A DNA stretch of 7,143 bases from a plasmid: the sequence record NZ_CP072259.1. One strand, given 5' to 3'. The notes under the pieces were generated by a model, which saw only the letters and a list, made by a program, of their open reading frames with translations, ran no database searches and was not told the DNA's origin. The position numbers and the translations under genes were made by a program. This document shows, piece after piece, positions 1,026 to 7,143 of the stretch. The first letter of the stretch is position 1; each line of letters begins with the position of its first letter.

Positions 1026-1451
1026 ATGTCACACAATCAAAACAATGATATTATGAAACCAACTGACTACATCGAGTGGGATAATCTGAAGAATATCCCT
1101 TTCTTCCTCTGCCAAGTGGTCGAGGACAAAGAAAACAAAGACATTGACATCTATTATTTAGGAAAGCGAGTGTTTCACGATTACGACCATGTGGGGCACT
1201 ATATGCGCTCTGCCATTATACTGTTTCGAAGAATCAAGAACCGCACGGCAGACTGGGTAAACCTTCAGAACCTCTGGACGCTGCGCAACTGTATTCGTGA
1301 GAATTACAATCACGGTATAGGTGTGGATAGTCTGATTTACGGAGAGGACTTTGACGGCGAGAATCCCGAAACACTTACTCCATTGACCAAAAAACGTTTT
1401 GACCTCATAGTAAAGCGAATACAGGAACTTGACAAATACGCAACAATTTAA
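1026..1451 (+). CDS. Hypothetical protein (141 aa) translationally coupled to rep
   Basis: The ORF track starts this frame at a GTG at 975, inside rep. The first ATG is at 1026, 2 nt after the rep stop (tgaTTatg). I see no recognisable family. There is a His/Asp-rich patch, 'FHDYDHVGHY'. GC matches rep at about 42%. Confidence 0.5.
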   Translation: MSHNQNNDIMKPTDYIEWDNLKNIPFFLCQVVEDKENKDIDIYYLGKRVFHDYDHVGHYMRSAIILFRRIKNRTADWVNLQNLWTLRNCIRENYNHGIGVDSLIYGEDFDGENPETLTPLTKKRFDLIVKRIQELDKYATI

Positions 1452-1630
1452 ATTGCATAGACGACTTCTATCAAATACAACAAAAAGGAGAAACTATAAT
1501 GTTAAAACCCAATTATCGAGAACAATATTACTAATAAATTCTTATCTTTGCATGGAATTTAGAACAACAAGTTATGTCGAACTTACAGAGTGCATTAGCA
1601 CGTACTTTTAGAATACGTTCATAGTCTATA

Positions 1631-1656
1631 CTGAGAATCCTTTCTCAGTTTTCTTA
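1631..1656 (+). terminator. Candidate rho-independent terminator or leader hairpin
   Basis: ctgagaa-tcct-ttctcag forms a 7-bp perfect stem with a 4-nt loop, followed by ttttctta. It sits in the 311-bp gap between the rep-operon ORFs and the OMP gene. Confidence 0.35.
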
Positions 1657-1762
1657 TAGCCTTCAATTCTTCTGAGGGCAAATTTTCTATTATCATTTAT
1701 TAATCAAGATTGTGATGCAGGTATTATATCTGTGTCTATATCTCATTTATAAGAAAACAAGT

Positions 1763-4081
1763 ATGGACTTAAATAAAAAACATTTATTATATCTTATCGT
1801 ATTTTTTCTGTTCGGTAACTTGAATGCTTTTGGACAATCAATTAACATTTCAGGAAGGATACTTAGTCAAGGTACACAAGATGCTGTTGAATATGCTAAT
1901 ATTGTTCTATTTAAACAGGATTCTATATTTTTACAAGGAACTACAAGTGATTCTATTGGGAGATTTGAATTTATGAACCTTTCTCCGAATGATTATGTAT
2001 TGTCAGTATCTTGTATGGGTTTTGAGCCTAAAAAGATATTGCTACAAAATCTTGCTGAAACAGTAGAAATAGATGTGTTCTTGAATGAAAGTGCACTGTC
2101 CCTTGGTGAAGTTGTTATTTCAGCTTCATCTACAATAAGCAAAATAAATCAGCGAATCGTTTTTCCGACAAAATTACAACTTAGTCATTCGGCAAACGGA
2201 ATGCAACTATTAAATACAATGATGCTTCCGGGAATAAACATCAATCCGATGGCAAACACGATTTCATCTTCCGACGGTGGAAAAGTCATATTGCAAATCA
2301 ATGACGTAAATGCCACATCGGAAGAGATACTGACTCTGCAACCGCGTCAAATCAGGAGGGTTGAATATTCGGATTATGCAGGAATAAGGTACGGAGAAGC
2401 ATCTAAAATTGTCAATTATATTGTTACAAGGGACGATAAGGGTGGTGTTATTGGTGTGGACTTGATGAACTCCCTGAATATTCTGGCGGGTGGCGATGTG
2501 TTTTTCGCCAAGTTTAATAAAGGCAAGTCGGAATATGCACTGAACTACACCGCTGCTTTTCAGAAAATCAACAGCAATAATCGGACACGTACAGGAAGCT
2601 ATCAATTTGAAAATTCACCTATGTTGCAGAGAGATGAAATCGGGGAAGGCGGAGATTATTCGTATCAGATGCATGATGTCACTTTAGGGTACAACTATCA
2701 ACAAAGCGATTCGACATTCTTCAATGCAAAATTAAAGTATGCTTTGACAAACCATCCGCATAATGACTTTAGAAGTAGCCTGAAAGAAAAAGGTGTAGAT
2801 GTAGGCAGAATATTTGATGGTGTTAGTCAGAAAATCAACACGCCAACAGTAGATTTATATTATGAACTTGGTTTGAAAAATCGGCAAAAAATTTATACTA
2901 ACCTTGTCGGGAGTTATTCTAAAGTTGAAACACATCGTAATTACATAGAATACGACAATATTGATACGCTTTTCAGGGAGCAATTCAATTTGGTTTCCGA
3001 CAAATATTCACTGATTGCAGAAGGTATTTACGAGAAAAGTTTTACTCATGGTAGTTTGAAACTTGGAGCAAAGCACATTCAATCGTTTACTCAACAAGAA
3101 GTTCGACAAAATGGAACTTTCGAGTCGAATTTGAATCAAGCTGAATCTTCCGTCTTTACAGAATGGAATCACAGTAAAGATAATCTCAGCTATTCTCTGG
3201 GGCTTAGAGTTAATCGGGTACACCTATCCAATAGCTCAATCGATAAGAGTTATTATAATCTTCTGCCAAAAGCCATGTTTGGATACAGGCTAAGTGAAAA
3301 TTCTTTTATTCGTTACGATGTGGAGATGAGTCAAACAAACCCGACTTTGATTGAATTAACCGATACGGAAATTAGACTTGACCCTTATCTTGCCGAAAAA
3401 GGAAACTTGTCATTGAAACCTTATCGCAACCTGAACAACAACCTTTTTTACGAAAACAAAAAAGGCTTGTTTACGCTCAATGTAAACCTACGACATCATT
3501 ATAAGCACAACCCTATCATGGAGTCAATAAAGCGACAAGGTGACATCTTCCTTATAATACCTGAAAATATGAAAAGTTGGAGCAAGTATAATGCAGAAAT
3601 GACCTTAAAGTTGGGCATGATAAAGAACATCTTACAGTTTTCGCTTACAGGCGGATACAATCATTTCAGCAGTCAAGGAAACAACTATTCGCATACACAC
3701 TCTAATTTTTATTATAGCGCAAATGTGTTGGCAATGTATAAAAAATGGATGTTTATCGGTCAGATACAGCCGTTTGAAGAAATGTTATATGGTGAAACCG
3801 TTATTAAGAACGGCAATTACCACTACTTAGCCGTTCAATACAATGCAAATAGTTTTTCGTTCGGCATAGGTGCATTCAATCCTTTTAAGAATGTTTCCCG
3901 AAGTATAATGGAAAACAAGAATGCTCTAGCTCCTTTTAGAAGAGAGAGTTTTAGTAATGCTTCTCAGACTATTGTAGCTACTCTTACGTGGAATTTCAGC
4001 TTTGGAAAAACTCATAGCTCAAGCAGTAAATCTCTGAATAATCAGGACGCTGATTATGGTGTGAAAAGTAGTTATAAATAG
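1763..4081 (+). CDS. Outer-membrane beta-barrel protein with N-terminal carboxypeptidase-regulatory-like domain (TonB-dependent-receptor-like / OMP_b-brl_3 type)
   Basis: The ORF track starts at a GTG at 1712. The ATG at 1763 gives a textbook signal peptide: MDLNKKHLLYLIVFFLFGNLNAFG|Q. The next ~85 aa ('INISGRILSQGTQDAVEYANIVLFKQDS...GRFEFMNLSPNDYVLSVSCMGFEPKK') match the CarboxypepD_reg-like fold that heads SusC/TonB-receptor-like and OMP_b-brl_3 proteins in Bacteroidota. The remaining ~680 aa are rich in alternating aromatic/polar residues (Y, N, S, G, F) typical of a large beta-barrel. GC is about 32%. Confidence 0.75.
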   Translation: MDLNKKHLLYLIVFFLFGNLNAFGQSINISGRILSQGTQDAVEYANIVLFKQDSIFLQGTTSDSIGRFEFMNLSPNDYVLSVSCMGFEPKKILLQNLAETVEIDVFLNESALSLGEVVISASSTISKINQRIVFPTKLQLSHSANGMQLLNTMMLPGININPMANTISSSDGGKVILQINDVNATSEEILTLQPRQIRRVEYSDYAGIRYGEASKIVNYIVTRDDKGGVIGVDLMNSLNILAGGDVFFAKFNKGKSEYALNYTAAFQKINSNNRTRTGSYQFENSPMLQRDEIGEGGDYSYQMHDVTLGYNYQQSDSTFFNAKLKYALTNHPHNDFRSSLKEKGVDVGRIFDGVSQKINTPTVDLYYELGLKNRQKIYTNLVGSYSKVETHRNYIEYDNIDTLFREQFNLVSDKYSLIAEGIYEKSFTHGSLKLGAKHIQSFTQQEVRQNGTFESNLNQAESSVFTEWNHSKDNLSYSLGLRVNRVHLSNSSIDKSYYNLLPKAMFGYRLSENSFIRYDVEMSQTNPTLIELTDTEIRLDPYLAEKGNLSLKPYRNLNNNLFYENKKGLFTLNVNLRHHYKHNPIMESIKRQGDIFLIIPENMKSWSKYNAEMTLKLGMIKNILQFSLTGGYNHFSSQGNNYSHTHSNFYYSANVLAMYKKWMFIGQIQPFEEMLYGETVIKNGNYHYLAVQYNANSFSFGIGAFNPFKNVSRSIMENKNALAPFRRESFSNASQTIVATLTWNFSFGKTHSSSSKSLNNQDADYGVKSSYK

Positions 4082-4089
4082 AGTCTGTT

Positions 4090-4308
4090 ATGAATAAAAA
4101 CAGTTTGGAATTATTCAGTTTATTATCTGAAAATTCACATGTTACAGACGAACAAATGCAAAATGCCTATAAGTCTTTTGTAGAACAGATAACAACAATC
4201 AGTCAATCTCAACAAAGCTATCCTGAAGTATTTCGGATGCTAAATAGAACTCGTATTGAGCTTGATTCTTTGGAATCATCATCTCTTTACGAGTTGGAAA
4301 AAAAATAA
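4090..4308 (+). CDS. Small acidic hypothetical protein (72 aa), operonic with OMP gene
   Basis: The ATG is 8 nt after the OMP stop and the gene shares the same low GC. There is no signal peptide or TM segment. The protein is rich in Q/E/S. I see no recognisable family. Confidence 0.45.
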   Translation: MNKNSLELFSLLSENSHVTDEQMQNAYKSFVEQITTISQSQQSYPEVFRMLNRTRIELDSLESSSLYELEKK

Positions 4309-4309
4309 G

Positions 4310-4765
4310 CTAAGAATCTCTGCTTTGGGGATTATTTTCTTTTTGATAATATTCATAATACATCTTATAGTTATCCCTATCTTTTGCTGCATCCACCCAT
4401 AAGTAGCACATCAGACAAGCAAACAACAGGGAGAAAACGGCACAAAGTATAGTCCAAAGTGAAATACGTTTGTCCACATAGCCACCATTCTTCATCCGGT
4501 AGCTCTGCTTCTCGAAACCCGACAAGACACTTTTTAGACTGTTTTCGGCATTTTCAAGACTTTTCTCATCTATCTGTACTTTTCTCTGTGTTGCGTCCTC
4601 TATGCGCTTTGTAAAGGCTTCTATGCGCTTTATCTCCTGAAATATCAGTTCAACCGCAAGCTGCGGGTTCACTTTCGGTGCTGTGTCCTTTCTGCGTGGG
4701 CTGTACTGCCCCCTTTTGGTGTTAGAGGTGGAGACCTCCTTTTCCTGATATGATGTCTTTTCCAT
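4310..4765 (-). CDS. Hypothetical membrane protein (151 aa), distal gene of mobilization operon
   Basis: ATG at 4763-4765 (minus strand), overlapping the relaxase 3' end by 44 nt. The N-terminal half is charged and looks coiled-coil ('KRIEAFTKRIEDATQRKVQIDEKSLENAE'). It has one strong TM helix ('LWTILCAVFSLLFACLMCYLWV'). The C-terminal ~20 codons are AT-rich. Confidence 0.5.
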   Translation of the reverse strand: MEKTSYQEKEVSTSNTKRGQYSPRRKDTAPKVNPQLAVELIFQEIKRIEAFTKRIEDATQRKVQIDEKSLENAENSLKSVLSGFEKQSYRMKNGGYVDKRISLWTILCAVFSLLFACLMCYLWVDAAKDRDNYKMYYEYYQKENNPQSRDS

Positions 4766-5516
4766 AACTCTGTCCTAATGTCTGTCTGTGTAACTTGAAA
4801 TGGGTTTTCTCTATGTGTGCGAGGGTGTAGTTCTTGCCTATCTCACTGGCTTTGTACTCCGTTCCGGACTTTGCCTTGACATAGTATCCGTTCAGCTTCC
4901 CAGTACTGGCTCTGGCTTCACGGATAGGATATCCAGCTTTCTCCATTTCCTCCTTGAAACTGCCGAAGTCGAACCTCTCGAGCTTCTGAAGAACTGCGTC
5001 CATGCCGGACTTGATGTCCTGTCTGTTTGCCTTGCCTATATCCTGAGCCTGTACGAGATTCCTCTCCCTCGCCATGCCGTTGGCTGCTTCGGTCGCCCTC
5101 TTGCCTATCCAGTTGTCCCGGTAAAGCTCGCCGGACATGGAAACCCGGTTTGCCAATATATGGAGGTGTGCCTGGTTCTTCCGGCTCTCCGTTCCTGAAT
5201 GCCTTATCACCACATACTGGTGGTTCTGCAACCCCATGCGTGTAAGGAAGTCGTCTGCTAGCTTCCTCCAGTCCTCACTGGTGTATTGTGCGCTTTCCTC
5301 AATGCTCGGACTTACCTCAAAGCGGAGGCAGTTGTTCCTCACGTTGGGGAAATCGGCAAAATACGGCTTCATCTCCTGAACCATGTCCGCACCTGTTGTG
5401 CCGTAAAGTCCGTTCCGGCACACTTCGGTGGCTGCGTCCTTTCCGGCTATCTGCTTGGAGAGGTCGTACTCCAGTGCTGCAGTACCGTGTGAAATGCTTT
5501 TTCCTTTGGCTATCAT
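4722..5516 (-). CDS. Mobilization relaxase (Relaxase/Mobilisation nuclease domain, MobA/VirD2-like)
   Basis: The N-terminus 'MIAKGKSISHG..ALEYDL' is the characteristic relaxase start. A His-rich motif 'HSGTESRKNQAHLHILANRV' is consistent with the HxH metal-binding site of MOB relaxases. Its ATG overlaps the upstream gene's stop (ATGA at 5513-5516). Confidence 0.8.
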   Translation of the reverse strand: MIAKGKSISHGTAALEYDLSKQIAGKDAATEVCRNGLYGTTGADMVQEMKPYFADFPNVRNNCLRFEVSPSIEESAQYTSEDWRKLADDFLTRMGLQNHQYVVIRHSGTESRKNQAHLHILANRVSMSGELYRDNWIGKRATEAANGMARERNLVQAQDIGKANRQDIKSGMDAVLQKLERFDFGSFKEEMEKAGYPIREARASTGKLNGYYVKAKSGTEYKASEIGKNYTLAHIEKTHFKLHRQTLGQSYGKDIISGKGGLHL

Positions 5517-5809
5517 CGCAAGAGCTTTTTAAGTTTTTCAATTATAACCCGGTTCTCCTCGAACACCTCCCTGTACTGGCGACCGCCGAAGTAGTTGTTC
5601 AGCCTTTGGAGGTCGCCCCTTATCTTGGCTATGTCACGAAGGAGAGCCTTTTCCTCCTCACTATACCTCTCCTTCGGCTGACCGCCAAGTGAAAGGCTTC
5701 TACAGTACTCCGAAGTGGTAAGACCGCATCGGAGAGCCTGTTCCGCAAGTGCAGCCTTCTCAAGTACCGTACAGCGGAATGTTATCTTTTCAGTGCGTTT
5801 TACTTCCAT
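5513..5809 (-). CDS. MobC-family (ribbon-helix-helix) mobilization accessory protein
   Basis: The ORF track starts at a GTG at 5914, but the upstream extension has non-protein-like composition. The ATG at 5807-5809 gives a 98-aa protein, 'MEVKRTEKITFRCTVLEKAALAEQALRCGLTTSEYCR...'. This matches the 'bacterial mobilisation protein MobC' pattern (R..r.t..E...l...A...G.s.SeyiR). Its stop overlaps the relaxase start. Confidence 0.7.
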   Translation of the reverse strand: MEVKRTEKITFRCTVLEKAALAEQALRCGLTTSEYCRSLSLGGQPKERYSEEEKALLRDIAKIRGDLQRLNNYFGGRQYREVFEENRVIIEKLKKLLR

Positions 5810-6118
5810 GCCGGCTAAGATAGGCAAAAAAATCCTTTTGAGCAAAGCGAGAAAGGCAAGAAATGTCCGACACGGACACTTCTTGCTATGTAAACACGCT
5901 GCATAGGAATACACCCACGCTTACCGACTGCACAGCCCACACACTTTTTTCCCTTTTTCCCCATGCTTCATACCAACGGAACACGGAGATAAAGTCAAGG
6001 GTACGGACTGAAAAAACCGCACAGCGAAGCTGCTCAGGATTTTTTCGGATCCGGACTTGCGAAGCCCTTGACTTTGGCGGAGTGTGGAGTTACCTTTGCA
6101 TCGGGTAAACGGGAAAAA
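5810..6118 (-). promoter_or_regulatory. Putative oriT / mob promoter region
   Basis: Non-coding gap upstream of the mobA-like gene. It contains a perfect 15-bp palindrome, tgtccgacacggaca (5864-5878). It also has an 11-bp perfect inverted repeat aaagtcaaggg / cccttgacttt (5991-6001 and 6065-6075), about 63 bp apart. A 'cggac' motif recurs four times (5867-5871 on the complementary strand; 5873-5877, 6004-6008 and 6052-6056 on the plus strand). Being upstream of the relaxase operon is the canonical oriT location in Bacteroides mobilizable elements. Confidence 0.4.
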
Positions 6119-6460
6119 TCAAAGTATATCCAGTTCTGCTATCATCTTCTTTAGAACTGGCACACTTACGGTAGAGTAGTCCGACTTGTCATAGACATCA
6201 ACGAGATACACACGACCTTCACTTTCGGAAGAACATATCGTAAACGTGATGACACGTGCGCCCCCTGACTTGCCTTTTCCTTTGGAGACTATGGCAAGGC
6301 GGATTTTACGCAAACCGGGACTAAGTTCAGTGCCTATTTTCGGGTCTTTGGCTAAATCTTCGACAAGCTCCTTTAAATCGGACTTGAAAGACTTGTACCT
6401 TTTCGCAAGGATTTTCGCTTCCCTCTCAAAATGCGGAGTGGTCTTTACTTCAAAGCTCAT
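6119..6460 (-). CDS. Type II toxin, RelE/ParE superfamily
   Basis: The ATG at 6458-6460 gives a 113-aa protein, 'MSFEVKTTPHFEREAKILAKRYKSFKSDLKELVEDL...'. It carries the 'KGKGKSGGARVI' motif typical of the RelE/ParE-fold 'GKSGGyRvI' toxin group. Its start overlaps the end of the upstream antitoxin by 11 nt. The track's longer TTG-start version (6505) is unlikely. Confidence 0.7.
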   Translation of the reverse strand: MSFEVKTTPHFEREAKILAKRYKSFKSDLKELVEDLAKDPKIGTELSPGLRKIRLAIVSKGKGKSGGARVITFTICSSESEGRVYLVDVYDKSDYSTVSVPVLKKMIAELDIL

Positions 6461-6683
6461 CGAGGAATGCGTTTGCGTTCTTGCCCGGAATTTCGCCGGA
6501 TTCAATTCGTTTTACATCATTCAACCCCTCTTTGATACGGGTTGCGATTTTCTCCTCCGCTGATACAGGAACCAGTTTGAAATCTCCGAGACGAGAGGTC
6601 AGGAATACGGATTCCCCCTGTATGGCACGGAGAAGGGTTGCGGTCTGATTTGTTCTAAACTTGCTTAATGAAACTACTTGCAT
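6450..6683 (-). CDS. Type II antitoxin, Phd/YefM family
   Basis: 77 aa, 'MQVVSLSKFRTNQTATLLRAIQGESVFLTSRLGDFKLVPVSAEE...'. This matches the Phd/YefM N-terminal pattern (M..vs.sefR.n....d.v..gepv.itrrG..v.vlvs.eey). It sits immediately upstream of the toxin in the same orientation. Confidence 0.7.
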   Translation of the reverse strand: MQVVSLSKFRTNQTATLLRAIQGESVFLTSRLGDFKLVPVSAEEKIATRIKEGLNDVKRIESGEIPGKNANAFLDEL

Positions 6684-6699
6684 ATCTATTCATTTTTTA

Positions 6700-6745
6700 A
6701 TTGTGTTACAAATGTAACCAAAGTTACTGATATTGTAACCAAATT
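6700..6745 (-). promoter_or_regulatory. TA-operon promoter with palindromic operator
   Basis: On the minus strand, TAcaTTTG (complement of 6709-6716) matches the Bacteroides sigma-A -7 consensus TAnnTTTG. It lies about 26-33 nt upstream of the antitoxin ATG. A TTTG about 20 nt further upstream (complement of ~6739-6744) could be the -33 element. The -7 box lies within the palindrome gttac-aaat-gtaac (6706-6719), where it overlaps the right arm. A direct repeat tgtaaccaaa x2 follows at 6714-6723 and 6734-6743. Confidence 0.4.
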
Positions 6746-6885
6746 AAGTTTCTTTAACACGCGGGAAAGTTCGTTCCAAACTTTAACCTCTAACCTTCCC
6801 CAAACCAGTCTTTTTTTCTTCCCTATTGTTTTTCCGAAAGTATGTTTTTGGGCAGTTTTTGAGTCACTTCGAGACTAAAATTCTG

Positions 6886-6924: not shown

Positions 6925-6987
6925 ACAAAAAAAAATACGTTTACAATTTATTGGTTTTCAATATCATACAGACAACAAAAAAGCCGA

Positions 6988-7065
6988 TATACGGAAGAAT
7001 AGTACGTCATATACGGAAGAATAGTACGTCACTTTTTTTTTTATATACGGAAGAATAGTACGTCA
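6988..7065 (+). repeat. Iteron array (3 x 22 bp, tatacggaagaatagtacgtca), putative oriV
   Basis: Perfect copies at 6988-7009, 7010-7031 and 7044-7065. Copies 2 and 3 are separated by a T12 tract. An inverted partial copy (ttccgtatat, 7089-7098) and an A/T-rich stretch follow. This is the typical architecture of Rep_3 iteron-controlled theta origins. Confidence 0.75.
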
Positions 7066-7110
7066 ATAACGAAAAATCAACATTATTTTTCCGTATATTA
7101 TTTTTTATGC

Positions 7111-7118
7111 TATATTTG
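7111..7118 (+). promoter_or_regulatory. Candidate rep promoter -7 box (TAtaTTTG)
   Basis: Matches the Bacteroides TAnnTTTG -7 consensus. It ends 25 nt before the window end. If the molecule is circular, the rep ATG at position 1 is about 26 nt downstream, an appropriate distance. Confidence 0.4.
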
Positions 7119-7143
7119 CAACTGAAAACCAATAATTGAGAGT

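Follow-up and report, generated by a model that had tools for sequence, protein, structure and literature searches.

In CTn214 of Bacteroides fragilis, traG is interrupted by a 10-kbp element of 11 genes, the first of which encodes a TonB-dependent receptor (PMC10865816). A TonB-dependent receptor is also found as cargo, together with a toxin-antitoxin (TA) system, on small Rep_3 plasmids of Acinetobacter baumannii (PMC5559437), and the XusA-type protein 9gbc comes from work on iron piracy, through xenosiderophore uptake, in Bacteroides (PMC13142918). Here we describe a stretch of 7143 nucleotides (sequence record NZ_CP072259.1; the whole stretch is called the window below), which is a mobilizable Bacteroides plasmid with a Rep3 initiator, the mobilization proteins MbpABC and a RelE-type TA pair. 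Its cargo is a cassette of 2.8 kb (about 1525-4311, + strand), which we take to be a unit of four parts: a promoter box, a leader of 215 nt, the gene of a 772-aa outer membrane protein (OMP) and a 72-aa open reading frame (ORF), p72. On balance we think it probable that this cassette was captured as a fragment of a donor element, that the OMP is a transporter of the TonB-dependent type, that its gene is controlled by attenuation in the leader, and that p72 hitch-hikes with it.

Origin and borders of the cargo cassette

The closest backbone found in PLSDB was that of a 4320-bp Bacteroides faecis plasmid (L057), with about 70% protein identity for Rep, 86% for the product of the neighbouring 141-aa ORF (orf141) and 81% DNA identity over the mobilization (mob) region. 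Its colinearity with the window is broken at two sites only, which correspond to two inserts in the window: about 700 bp take the place of window 1451-4343, where the cassette lies, and 179 bp that of window 6101-6874, which makes the TA module the second insert. Window 1533-4311 is 99.9% identical at the DNA level to CTn214 (L001 6001-8779), the OMP and p72 proteins being 100% identical in the two, and shares 80.6% identity with pRGF00002 and with a 104-kb B. thetaiotaomicron plasmid. Downstream of the cassette, CTn214 and related contexts have a third gene (129-139 aa), a helix-turn-helix (HTH) gene, bfmA/btgA and the gene of a MobB-type relaxase. In the plasmid, the copy ends directly behind the stop codon of p72, a single base short of that of mbpC. 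Judged by these alignments, what the plasmid captured is a piece from the interior of an integrative mobilizable element of the BfmA/MobB type. An earlier note, made from the letters of the window alone, had proposed that the cargo was acquired by a plasmid of rep, mob and TA genes, and this is borne out by its absence from the B. faecis plasmid and by the nearly identical DNA in CTn214.

The comparison with these two elements was a better guide to acquisition than base composition. The GC content was 35.0% for 1452-4309, the island that the note had marked as foreign, 39.8% for rep plus orf141, 48.5% for the mob operon (51.6% for mbpB), 45.5% for the TA pair and 30% for the intergenic origin region. 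The island is indeed lower in GC than rep and mob, but the contrast had been exaggerated, with a value of 32% for the island and one of 50-60% for mob and TA that the measurements contradict. The expected discontinuity was likewise found only in part: GC steps at the borders of the island (35.0% against 39.8 and 48.5%), whereas its tetranucleotide profile correlated with that of the rep module (0.74, compared with 0.77 between the two halves of the OMP gene) and the outlier was the mob module (0.26 with the island, 0.49 with rep). Because its tetranucleotide profile is inseparable from that of rep, the island is not singled out by composition alone. OMP orthologues with at least 80% identity had 35-37% GC in flanks of 38-46% (12 contexts); the gene keeps its low-GC signature in every context.

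The left edge of the cassette varies. In the window, homology to CTn214 resumes at ATATTACT (1525-1532), beyond a deletion of 7-8 nt. This leftward homology extends over 100-125 nt more in four loci, about 35 nt in one and about 8 nt in the window, and it is nil where an element of the ISL3/ISAon1 type abuts. A fixed att-type left end at 1533, suggested by three BLAST comparisons, was ruled out by this dependence on context. As the note had remarked, neither an integrase nor an insertion sequence (IS) was found in the window, and no convincing repeats were found at the flanks; the only inverted matches around the cassette were imperfect (70-73%) and probably due to chance. The ISL3/ISAon1-family element, with ORFs of 143 and 358 aa, lies directly upstream of an 81% variant of the cassette and forms with it a 5-kb block (L002 1894-6951, equal to L003 4402-9460; also in L016 and L069). 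A rat/human-gut plasmid and a megaplasmid of B. thetaiotaomicron share this block with 99.9% identity.

Since the cassette is cut right after p72, one of its two genes probably serves no purpose in the plasmid, and the whole could be a neutral remnant of a past integration and deletion, of no use to its carrier. We regard this as very unlikely. The OMP ORF is intact and its product identical to that of the CTn214 copy, and among cassette variants the ratio of non-synonymous to synonymous substitution rates (dN/dS) was 0.06-0.13, without any indel over 772 codons, which means that the gene is under strong purifying selection. Furthermore, many human-gut assemblies contain plasmid contigs of 7.1-7.3 kb that have the cassette, with the same p72.

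The OMP gene is also widespread. In one scan of representative genomes, orthologues with 75-84% identity were found, often on short contigs, in at least 12 genera of Bacteroidales (Bacteroides, Phocaeicola, Parabacteroides, Prevotella, Paraprevotella, Hallella, Hoylesella, Leyella, Dysgonomonas, Proteiniphilum, Barnesiella, Odoribacter and others). They are carried by plasmids, mobilizable elements, conjugative transposons and IS1380 composites. Most copies are not on plasmids but belong to integrative elements, mobilizable or conjugative, and to IS1380 composites, and the notion of a new plasmid-borne OMP system had to be given up. The gene moves by several vehicles among these genera of the gut, the rumen and poultry; genes with such mobility, selection and displacement by IS are usually resistance genes. 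That the cargo is selectable, as the note had suggested, is plausible from the dN/dS values, the spread between genera and the repeated replacement of the leader by an IS (see below). In PLSDB we also came across 'plasmids' of Parabacteroides distasonis TSDC17.2-1.1 (plasmid 13, plasmid 34 and others; L118, NZ_OY725758.1, and L119, NZ_OY725779.1) that carry housekeeping genes (serB, peptidases and a hydrogenase, among others) and look like mislabelled chromosome fragments.

The leader and its replacement

With the promoter box included, the leader comprises the 230 nt from the left edge of the cassette to the ATG of the OMP gene. It is 81-86% identical between cassettes in which dS is 0.9-1.6 or beyond correction; it has thus changed less than the synonymous sites of the OMP gene, which are near saturation. 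Within it, an upstream ORF (uORF) of 16 codons (1574-1624, + strand) encodes MSNLQSALARTFRIRS. Ahead of the uORF lies TATCTTTG (1543-1550, + strand), which matches TAnnTTTG, the -7 promoter consensus of Bacteroides, is kept in every uORF-type context, and is predicted to be the promoter box of the cassette itself. Two terminator-like hairpins follow on the same strand, the only sites of this kind in 1400-4450. Hairpin 1, ACTGAGAA-TCCT-TTCTCAGT (1630-1649), has the invariant tail TTTTCTTAT, which runs to 1658, and hairpin 2, GCCTTCA...TGAGGGC (1659-1679), has the tail AAATTTTCTA, which runs to 1689. Just before the OMP ATG, TATAAGAAAA (1748-1757, + strand) is complementary to TTTTCTTATA (1649-1658).

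The uORF was present in 45 loci, including homologues of 47-68% identity at unrelated chromosomal sites. We found 12 variants of the peptide, of 16-17 codons, ending in [FY][RK][IVT]R-x-stop, with A-R three residues ahead of this end motif in 10 of the 12. The window, L001 and L004 share MSNLQSALARTFRIRS; other peptides, each followed by a stop codon, are MSSIRCALARTFRIRA (L003 and others), MSSIRCTLARTFRIRA (L018), MSSIRCGLARTFKIRA (L009), MSSIRCSIARIFRIRA (L011), MITLHSSVARIFRIRS (L054), MKHTLCNSLARTFRVRI (L053), MNSYRNMAGFLFRIRA (L047), MAIYKAALARIYRIRF (L043), MAIYNATLARIYRIRF (L048) and MLSIRCGLARTFRTRS (L019). Over the last seven codons, the differences read in frame were 119 synonymous and 120 non-synonymous (119/239), compared with 17 synonymous and 247 non-synonymous in one shifted frame and 37 and 238 in the other (synonymous share 6% and 13%). 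When 1.8 Mb of fetched loci were searched on both strands, the motif occurred only upstream of OMP genes, except for one chance match. The pattern of substitutions indicates that it is the peptide of the uORF that is conserved. Because the uORFs use all three stop codons, a mechanism specific to one release factor is unlikely. Attenuation by an amino acid, arginine, was also considered and is unlikely, position -4 being Lys in L009 and L014 and the Arg codons being neither clustered nor uniform.

Both hairpins showed covariation. Hairpin 1 starts 6 nt past the uORF stop codon, a spacing that is conserved down to homologues of 47% identity; it has seven pairs, of which three show compensatory changes, with 97% of cells paired. 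Hairpin 2 also has seven pairs, four of them with compensatory changes, and in L054 its stem is wholly different (TTCTCCG/CGGAGAA). For the two hairpins together, 94% of cells were paired, as against 47-58% when the partners were slid, and none of 500 shuffles reached the covariation score. The pairing of TATAAGAAAA with TTTTCTTATA is perfect over 10 nt, belongs to the minimum-free-energy fold and is invariant in 10 of 11 leaders. Because 9 of its 10 pairs never vary, covariation neither supports nor contradicts it; it may mask the initiation region of the OMP gene.

The layout of the leader is, as far as its sequence tells, that of a ribosome-mediated attenuator, of which the arrest and its trigger are inferred. 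The uORF peptides contain R/K-x-R/K two residues before the stop codon, a motif given in two papers as that of arrest in macrolide- or ketolide-bound ribosomes (PMC8298421, PMC12583479). We propose that a 16-codon leader peptide (F-R/K-I/V-R-x-stop) would be translated just ahead of the two tandem hairpins. If the ribosome were arrested at the uORF end, it would cover the 5' arm of hairpin 1, and transcription would then enter the OMP gene; without arrest, the hairpins would terminate the transcript. The U-rich tail may in addition mask the initiation region. Arrest at or near the stop codon would fit the geometry better than the classical +x+ arrest.

Further evidence on the leader came from loci in which it has been replaced. 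In 15 loci (among L020-L035 and L044), all with a 75%-identity variant of the OMP, the end of an IS1380-family element (...GTGTTGCGGAATTAAGG; transposase at 332 bits, cut-off 180) stands in its place. The junctions lie 72-73, 17, 12 or 2 nt ahead of the start codon of the OMP gene, all past both hairpins and in one orientation. There are thus four independent IS1380 junctions, all of which remove the attenuator. On its + strand, about 150 nt inside the IS, the element has a TAccTTTG box that faces the OMP gene. In L027, IS1380 copies are found on both sides of the OMP gene (4493-5929 and 8522-9808), and in L026 the downstream copy truncates rteC. Activation of neighbouring genes by IS is a known pattern in Bacteroides. 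IS1380, with its outward promoter-like box, has taken the place of the leader, and the IS1380-linked lineages appear to have escaped from leader control in this way.

A different change was observed in L019 (50-3436), a contig of an uncultured Proteiniphilum metagenome-assembled genome, in which the intact leader is followed by a gene for a 23S rRNA methyltransferase of the RlmN/Cfr family and then by the OMP gene. The insert encodes a 284-aa radical-SAM protein that lacks the N-terminal domain, and it is placed exactly at the start position of the OMP, ATGGACTTAAA being common to both. A copy of the OMP start region stands at either end of the insert, and the uORF and both hairpins are kept. 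The protein scored 270 bits with the RlmN model (cut-off 290) and 184-188 bits with the Cfr models (cut-offs 468-550), and matched solved RlmN at 1e-51 and solved Cfr at 9e-47. A ribosome-modifying enzyme placed under this leader, at a single locus, would fit a switch that reports on the ribosome.

The leader might also be no switch at all, its hairpins serving to insulate or stabilise the mRNA, its uORF being incidental or independently useful, and the OMP being made constitutively. Several of our observations weigh against attenuation. No alternative, anti-terminator pairing was found in single-sequence or alignment folds, although direct occlusion of the stem by a ribosome would do without such a pairing. 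The first stem is weak, being only 7-8 bp long with three G-C pairs; the covariation was obtained with 11 related leader sequences; and the long-range pairing of TATAAGAAAA with TTTTCTTATA shows none and is missing in L047. A ribosome with Ile14 in its P site would barely reach hairpin 1. In addition, the IS-linked OMP copies evidently work without a leader. On the other hand, the hairpins lie downstream of the -7 box and would terminate the cassette's own transcript; the peptide, length and 6-nt spacing of the uORF are conserved to 47% identity at unrelated sites; and the leader has stayed intact in L019 although another gene has slotted in behind it. We consider a leader without switching function unlikely and prefer attenuation as its role.

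If attenuation is accepted, the leader-OMP unit could be read more widely, as a portable ribosome-arrest sensor for ribosome-targeting drugs or translational stress that drives the transporter and, by read-through, the regulatory and mobilization genes that always lie directly downstream. The co-oriented genes downstream are RteC in 20 loci and p72, the third gene, HTH, BfmA and MobB in 34. The unit would then be the OMP counterpart of the tetQ-rteA-rteB-rteC circuit of CTnDOT, with the transfer of a whole family of Bacteroidales mobilizable elements tied to the same signal, and the RlmN/Cfr-family methyltransferase of L019 would be a second client of the switch. We give this wider proposal little credence at present. 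A search of Rfam with the leader gave nothing at E ≤ 1. This type of attenuator is uncatalogued in Rfam and, in the literature that we found, undescribed for a TonB-dependent transporter. If confirmed, it would be a compact case on which the sensing of a nascent peptide can be tested in Bacteroides, and it might also supply a regulatory part for the genetics of this genus.

The outer membrane protein and p72

The 772-aa ORF reported in the note is present (1763-4081, + strand). Its start is the conserved ATG at 1763, a GTG at 1712 being also offered by the list of ORFs; for the CTn214 copy, RefSeq uses the ATG and names the protein 'TonB-dependent receptor'. As the note had supposed, the N-terminus resembles a signal peptide (predicted for aa 1-24), with KK, the hydrophobic core LLYLIVFFLF (mean Kyte-Doolittle value 3.1) and then NAFG|Q, and with a helix at 6-18 in the structural model. 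It is followed by a CarboxypepD_reg-like N-terminal domain (aa 27-107; a beta-sandwich in the model), which accounts for the Pfam matches of the protein (PF13715, 5e-13; PF13620, 2e-11), and by the TonB-box-like motif match GEVVISAS (aa 115-122, nt 2105-2128). Next come a plug of mixed alpha/beta structure (aa 124-221), which answers the note's question whether the barrel has one, the barrel (aa 226-747) and a disordered C-terminal tail of 25 aa (aa 748-772, nt 4004-4078). The last predicted strand is TLTWNFSF, and the Ser/Asn-rich tail of 25 residues, of low confidence in the model, ends in SSYK; this is unusual, since in transporters of this type the chain normally stops at the aromatic residue that closes the last strand.

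The AlphaFold2 model had a mean pLDDT of 85.6 and a pTM of 0.74, with continuous barrel strands at a pLDDT of about 90. Foldseek matched it over its full length to PhuR, ChuA, PirA, PfeA, Cir, FecA, BtuB and many other solved transporters (E values of 1e-18 to 1e-15, 10-12% identity), in alignments of 640-890 columns, gaps included, with a TM of up to 0.67 on the target. A family profile built from 44 OMP family members was matched to solved structures and found XusA-type 9gbc (2e-18, positions 4-300) and SusC (2.5e-15), over the N-terminal domain and the plug. Its positions 114-273 matched the plug of PfeA/FepA at about 3e-7, and barrels of the FrpB/FetA type were found at 1e-6 to 7e-6. GEVVISAS lies in a low-confidence linker of the model (112-121), and the family consensus is LxEVVVTASS; EVVV-type TonB boxes occur in transporters of Bacteroidetes. 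Family profile, model and Foldseek agree on the secreted barrel of TonB-receptor type that the note had named, and on the model the OMP can be confidently assigned the fold of a TonB-dependent transporter, with N-terminal domain, plug and barrel. As read from this fold, its task would be the TonB-energized import of a probably scarce solute across the outer membrane.

Some observations point to a more specific role, in which the transporter would handle a ribosomally made, modified peptide (a bacteriocin, a signal or a metallophore) in uptake, sensing or export, and a host with the mobile copy could then exploit or answer the peptide of its neighbours. Some OMP homologues with 31-34% identity are found in radical-SAM/SPASM clusters with C39-peptidase ABC exporters (L049 2848-8476 and L052 178-10430, the latter with a 59-aa double-glycine precursor), and in L005-L008 a homologue lies beside a radical-SAM enzyme (e.g. 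L005 6213-15652). TonB-dependent transporters are, moreover, the usual gates for microcins, and the pair Cir-microcin V is represented among the fold matches. However, other homologues with 33-34% identity stand at ordinary chromosomal sites without peptide-maturation genes, the mobile subfamily (at least 47% identity) is never found beside such genes, and substrate specificity is not transferable at 30% identity. An ancestral link between the OMP family and modified peptides is possible from this distribution of homologues, while we find it rather unlikely that the mobile transporter itself handles such a peptide. We keep to the import of a probably scarce solute as its most likely role.

The 72-aa ORF noted next to the OMP gene is indeed there (p72, 4090-4308, + strand) and starts 8 nt past the OMP stop codon. 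An exhaustive search yielded relatives in 109 representative clusters, mostly of 69-95 aa, with the family consensus ...AYExF...FRxLNxTRIEL...YEQGEKC. A metagenome scan for p72 gave 60 loci, in 37 of which p72 is followed by the third gene, HTH, BfmA and MobB with no OMP gene upstream. In these 37 loci the slot before p72 holds other cargo (an integrase with MFS, EamA, ABC-2, SDR, AraC/GyrI or flavodoxin). Wherever else p72 occurs, the third gene, HTH, BfmA and MobB always come next. In 20 loci the OMP gene is followed by RteC instead of p72, and the chromosomal OMP homologues have neither of the two downstream. In all, the OMP gene was found without p72 in more than 30 loci and paired with it in 34 (12 + 22). 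The pair thus recurs, as the note had asked of synteny, but each gene is common without the other. p72 modelled as a soluble protein of three helices (pLDDT 80), which we take to be cytoplasmic. No signal peptide, lipobox or membrane helix was found in it, it belongs to no Pfam family (the Pfam matches of family members are scattered noise), and Foldseek found no fold match better than E = 2.7. Its dN/dS was 0.29-0.39, and in protein P0137 it is fused to the third gene.

Because of the 37 loci without OMP, the loci with RteC and the fusion to the third gene, p72 belongs to the donor backbone and not to the OMP. On this synteny it is the first backbone gene of the donor element, a hitch-hiker cut from its usual downstream partner, and it was carried along because it lies 8 nt downstream of the OMP gene. 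The note had described the 72-aa protein as coupled to the OMP, and the two could in principle form a dedicated plasmid-borne surface system, such as a phage-receptor decoy or a means of surface exclusion, given that they are 8 nt apart, recur as a pair in 34 loci and include a surface-exposed barrel that could serve such a purpose. The loci in which each gene occurs without the other largely refute the pairing, p72 models as soluble without export signals and is sometimes fused to the next backbone gene, and the OMP copies are mostly off plasmids. We find such a system scarcely credible and retain p72 as a passenger. For annotation, the case is a general warning that tight linkage need not make a small ORF a partner, since the ORF can also be what is left of a donor element. 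We also considered that p72 might be a split RteC, as RteC holds the same position elsewhere; this was rejected, since hhalign found nothing and the 109 relatives of about 75 aa stand alone. The third gene (L001 8787-9206; L003 8809-9198) diverges fast, with 36% identity between cassettes whose OMPs are 81% identical, and a weak colinear similarity was noted between its C-terminus and that of RteC (BLASTP 0.002; hhalign P 0.003, probability 10%).

The remaining points against our account concern the OMP and the capture of the cassette. The OMP itself matched none of PF14905, PF00593 and PF07715 at E ≤ 10, and nothing in NCBIfam, SusC included. Of the architecture expected in the note from hidden Markov models, CarboxypepD_reg plus barrel, the first part was found (PF13715), whereas the barrel families PF14905 and PF00593 are unmatched by the OMP. 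PF14905 was reached by its homologues P0019 (77% identical; 54 bits, cut-off 27) and P0071 (30% identical; 60 bits), and the distant relative P0092 has CarbopepD_reg_2, Plug and TonB_dep_Rec/OMP_b-brl_3. By sequence, the OMP is a divergent relative of PF14905 and not a scored member, in a narrow branch of at least 94 clusters (word-seeded search). No substrate can be read from the fold, because receptors for heme, siderophores, cobalamin, copper and colicins score alike; the heme-receptor motifs FRAP and NPNL were not seen on reading the OMP sequence. Many Bacteroides transporters of this kind have a lipoprotein or SusD-like partner, and no gene for such a protein was found in the window or conserved beside OMP orthologues. 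Finally, as to the capture, the left edge of the cassette varies with context and no repeats flank it.

The plasmid and known systems

Nine ORFs of the window have support. Those outside the cassette are the Rep3 initiator (1-1023, + strand; PF01051 and PF21205), orf141 (1026-1451, + strand), a conserved part of the plasmid backbone, and five genes on the - strand: mbpC (4310-4765), the relaxase gene mbpB (4722-5516) and mbpA (5513-5809), each above the cut-off of the corresponding NCBIfam equivalog (MbpC, MbpB, MbpA), and the genes of a RelE/ParE-like toxin (6119-6505) and a Phd/YefM-like antitoxin (6450-6683), both with weak Pfam matches. In related plasmids the latter pair is annotated as RelE/ParE toxin and prevent-host-death protein, and the RelE/ParE-Phd module is found with 78-80% identity in several small Bacteroides plasmids with different rep genes. 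orf141 follows rep after a gap of 2 nt, or overlaps it by 49 nt if a GTG at 975 is used. RefSeq names its homologue in the 4320-bp B. faecis plasmid (86% identity) 'exo-poly-alpha-D-galacturonosidase', which looks like a mis-annotation of a backbone protein because orf141 has no match in Pfam or NCBIfam.

A search for direct repeats found three copies of ATATACGGAAGAATAGTACGTC (6987-7074, + strand; starts at 6987, 7009 and 7043, spacing 22 and 34 nt). With their 22-nt unit, in a stretch of 30% GC upstream of rep, they are probably Rep3 iterons and mark the replication origin. The area is bracketed by imperfect inverted repeats (6948-6982 with 7101-7135). The window is a complete circular plasmid of 7143 bp, because an independent metagenome contig (L004) joins position 7143 to position 1.

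Among transporters, the XusA type (9gbc) and SusC homologues (5t3r) have the same order of parts as the OMP (772 aa, compared with 796 aa). They resemble it only in the N-terminal domain and the plug (the first 300 residues with 9gbc). Unlike these proteins, the OMP has no adjacent XusB- or SusD-like lipoprotein, and its gene is mobile and, by our prediction, controlled by a leader. It is also close to the 'outer membrane beta-barrel family protein' of PF14905/PGAP, for which its homologues P0019 and P0071 pass while the OMP itself falls below.

The leaders that most resemble that of the OMP gene are ErmDL (MRLR), the msrD leader (PMC10314930) and the tetQ leader of CTnDOT, which likewise have a short uORF with a conserved peptide and a terminator-like hairpin, and are found on mobile elements; R/K-x-R/K near the end of the uORF is common to them and to the OMP leader. 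They differ in that they control resistance genes, whereas the OMP leader precedes the gene of an outer-membrane transporter. CTnDOT has the layout tetQ-rteA-rteB, to which the position of the OMP gene just upstream of rteC in RteC-type elements is comparable.

The 10-kbp element of CTn214 continues beyond p72 into the third gene, HTH, btgA/bfmA, relaxase, GNAT, Abi and two integrases; our plasmid holds its first 2.8 kb only. The Rep_3 plasmids of A. baumannii are likewise small, with Rep3, TA and a receptor, but belong to a different phylum and have unrelated proteins. For IS1380-family elements, precedents are ISEcp1 with blaCTX-M, and, in Bacteroides, cfiA, nim and cepA are activated by IS; these resemble the 75%-identity variant of the OMP only and not the copy in the window. 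The cassette is thus not compositionally exotic, not plasmid-specific and not a two-gene system. Precedents exist for each of its ingredients: small Rep3 plasmids with a receptor, leader-peptide attenuators and capture by IS1380.

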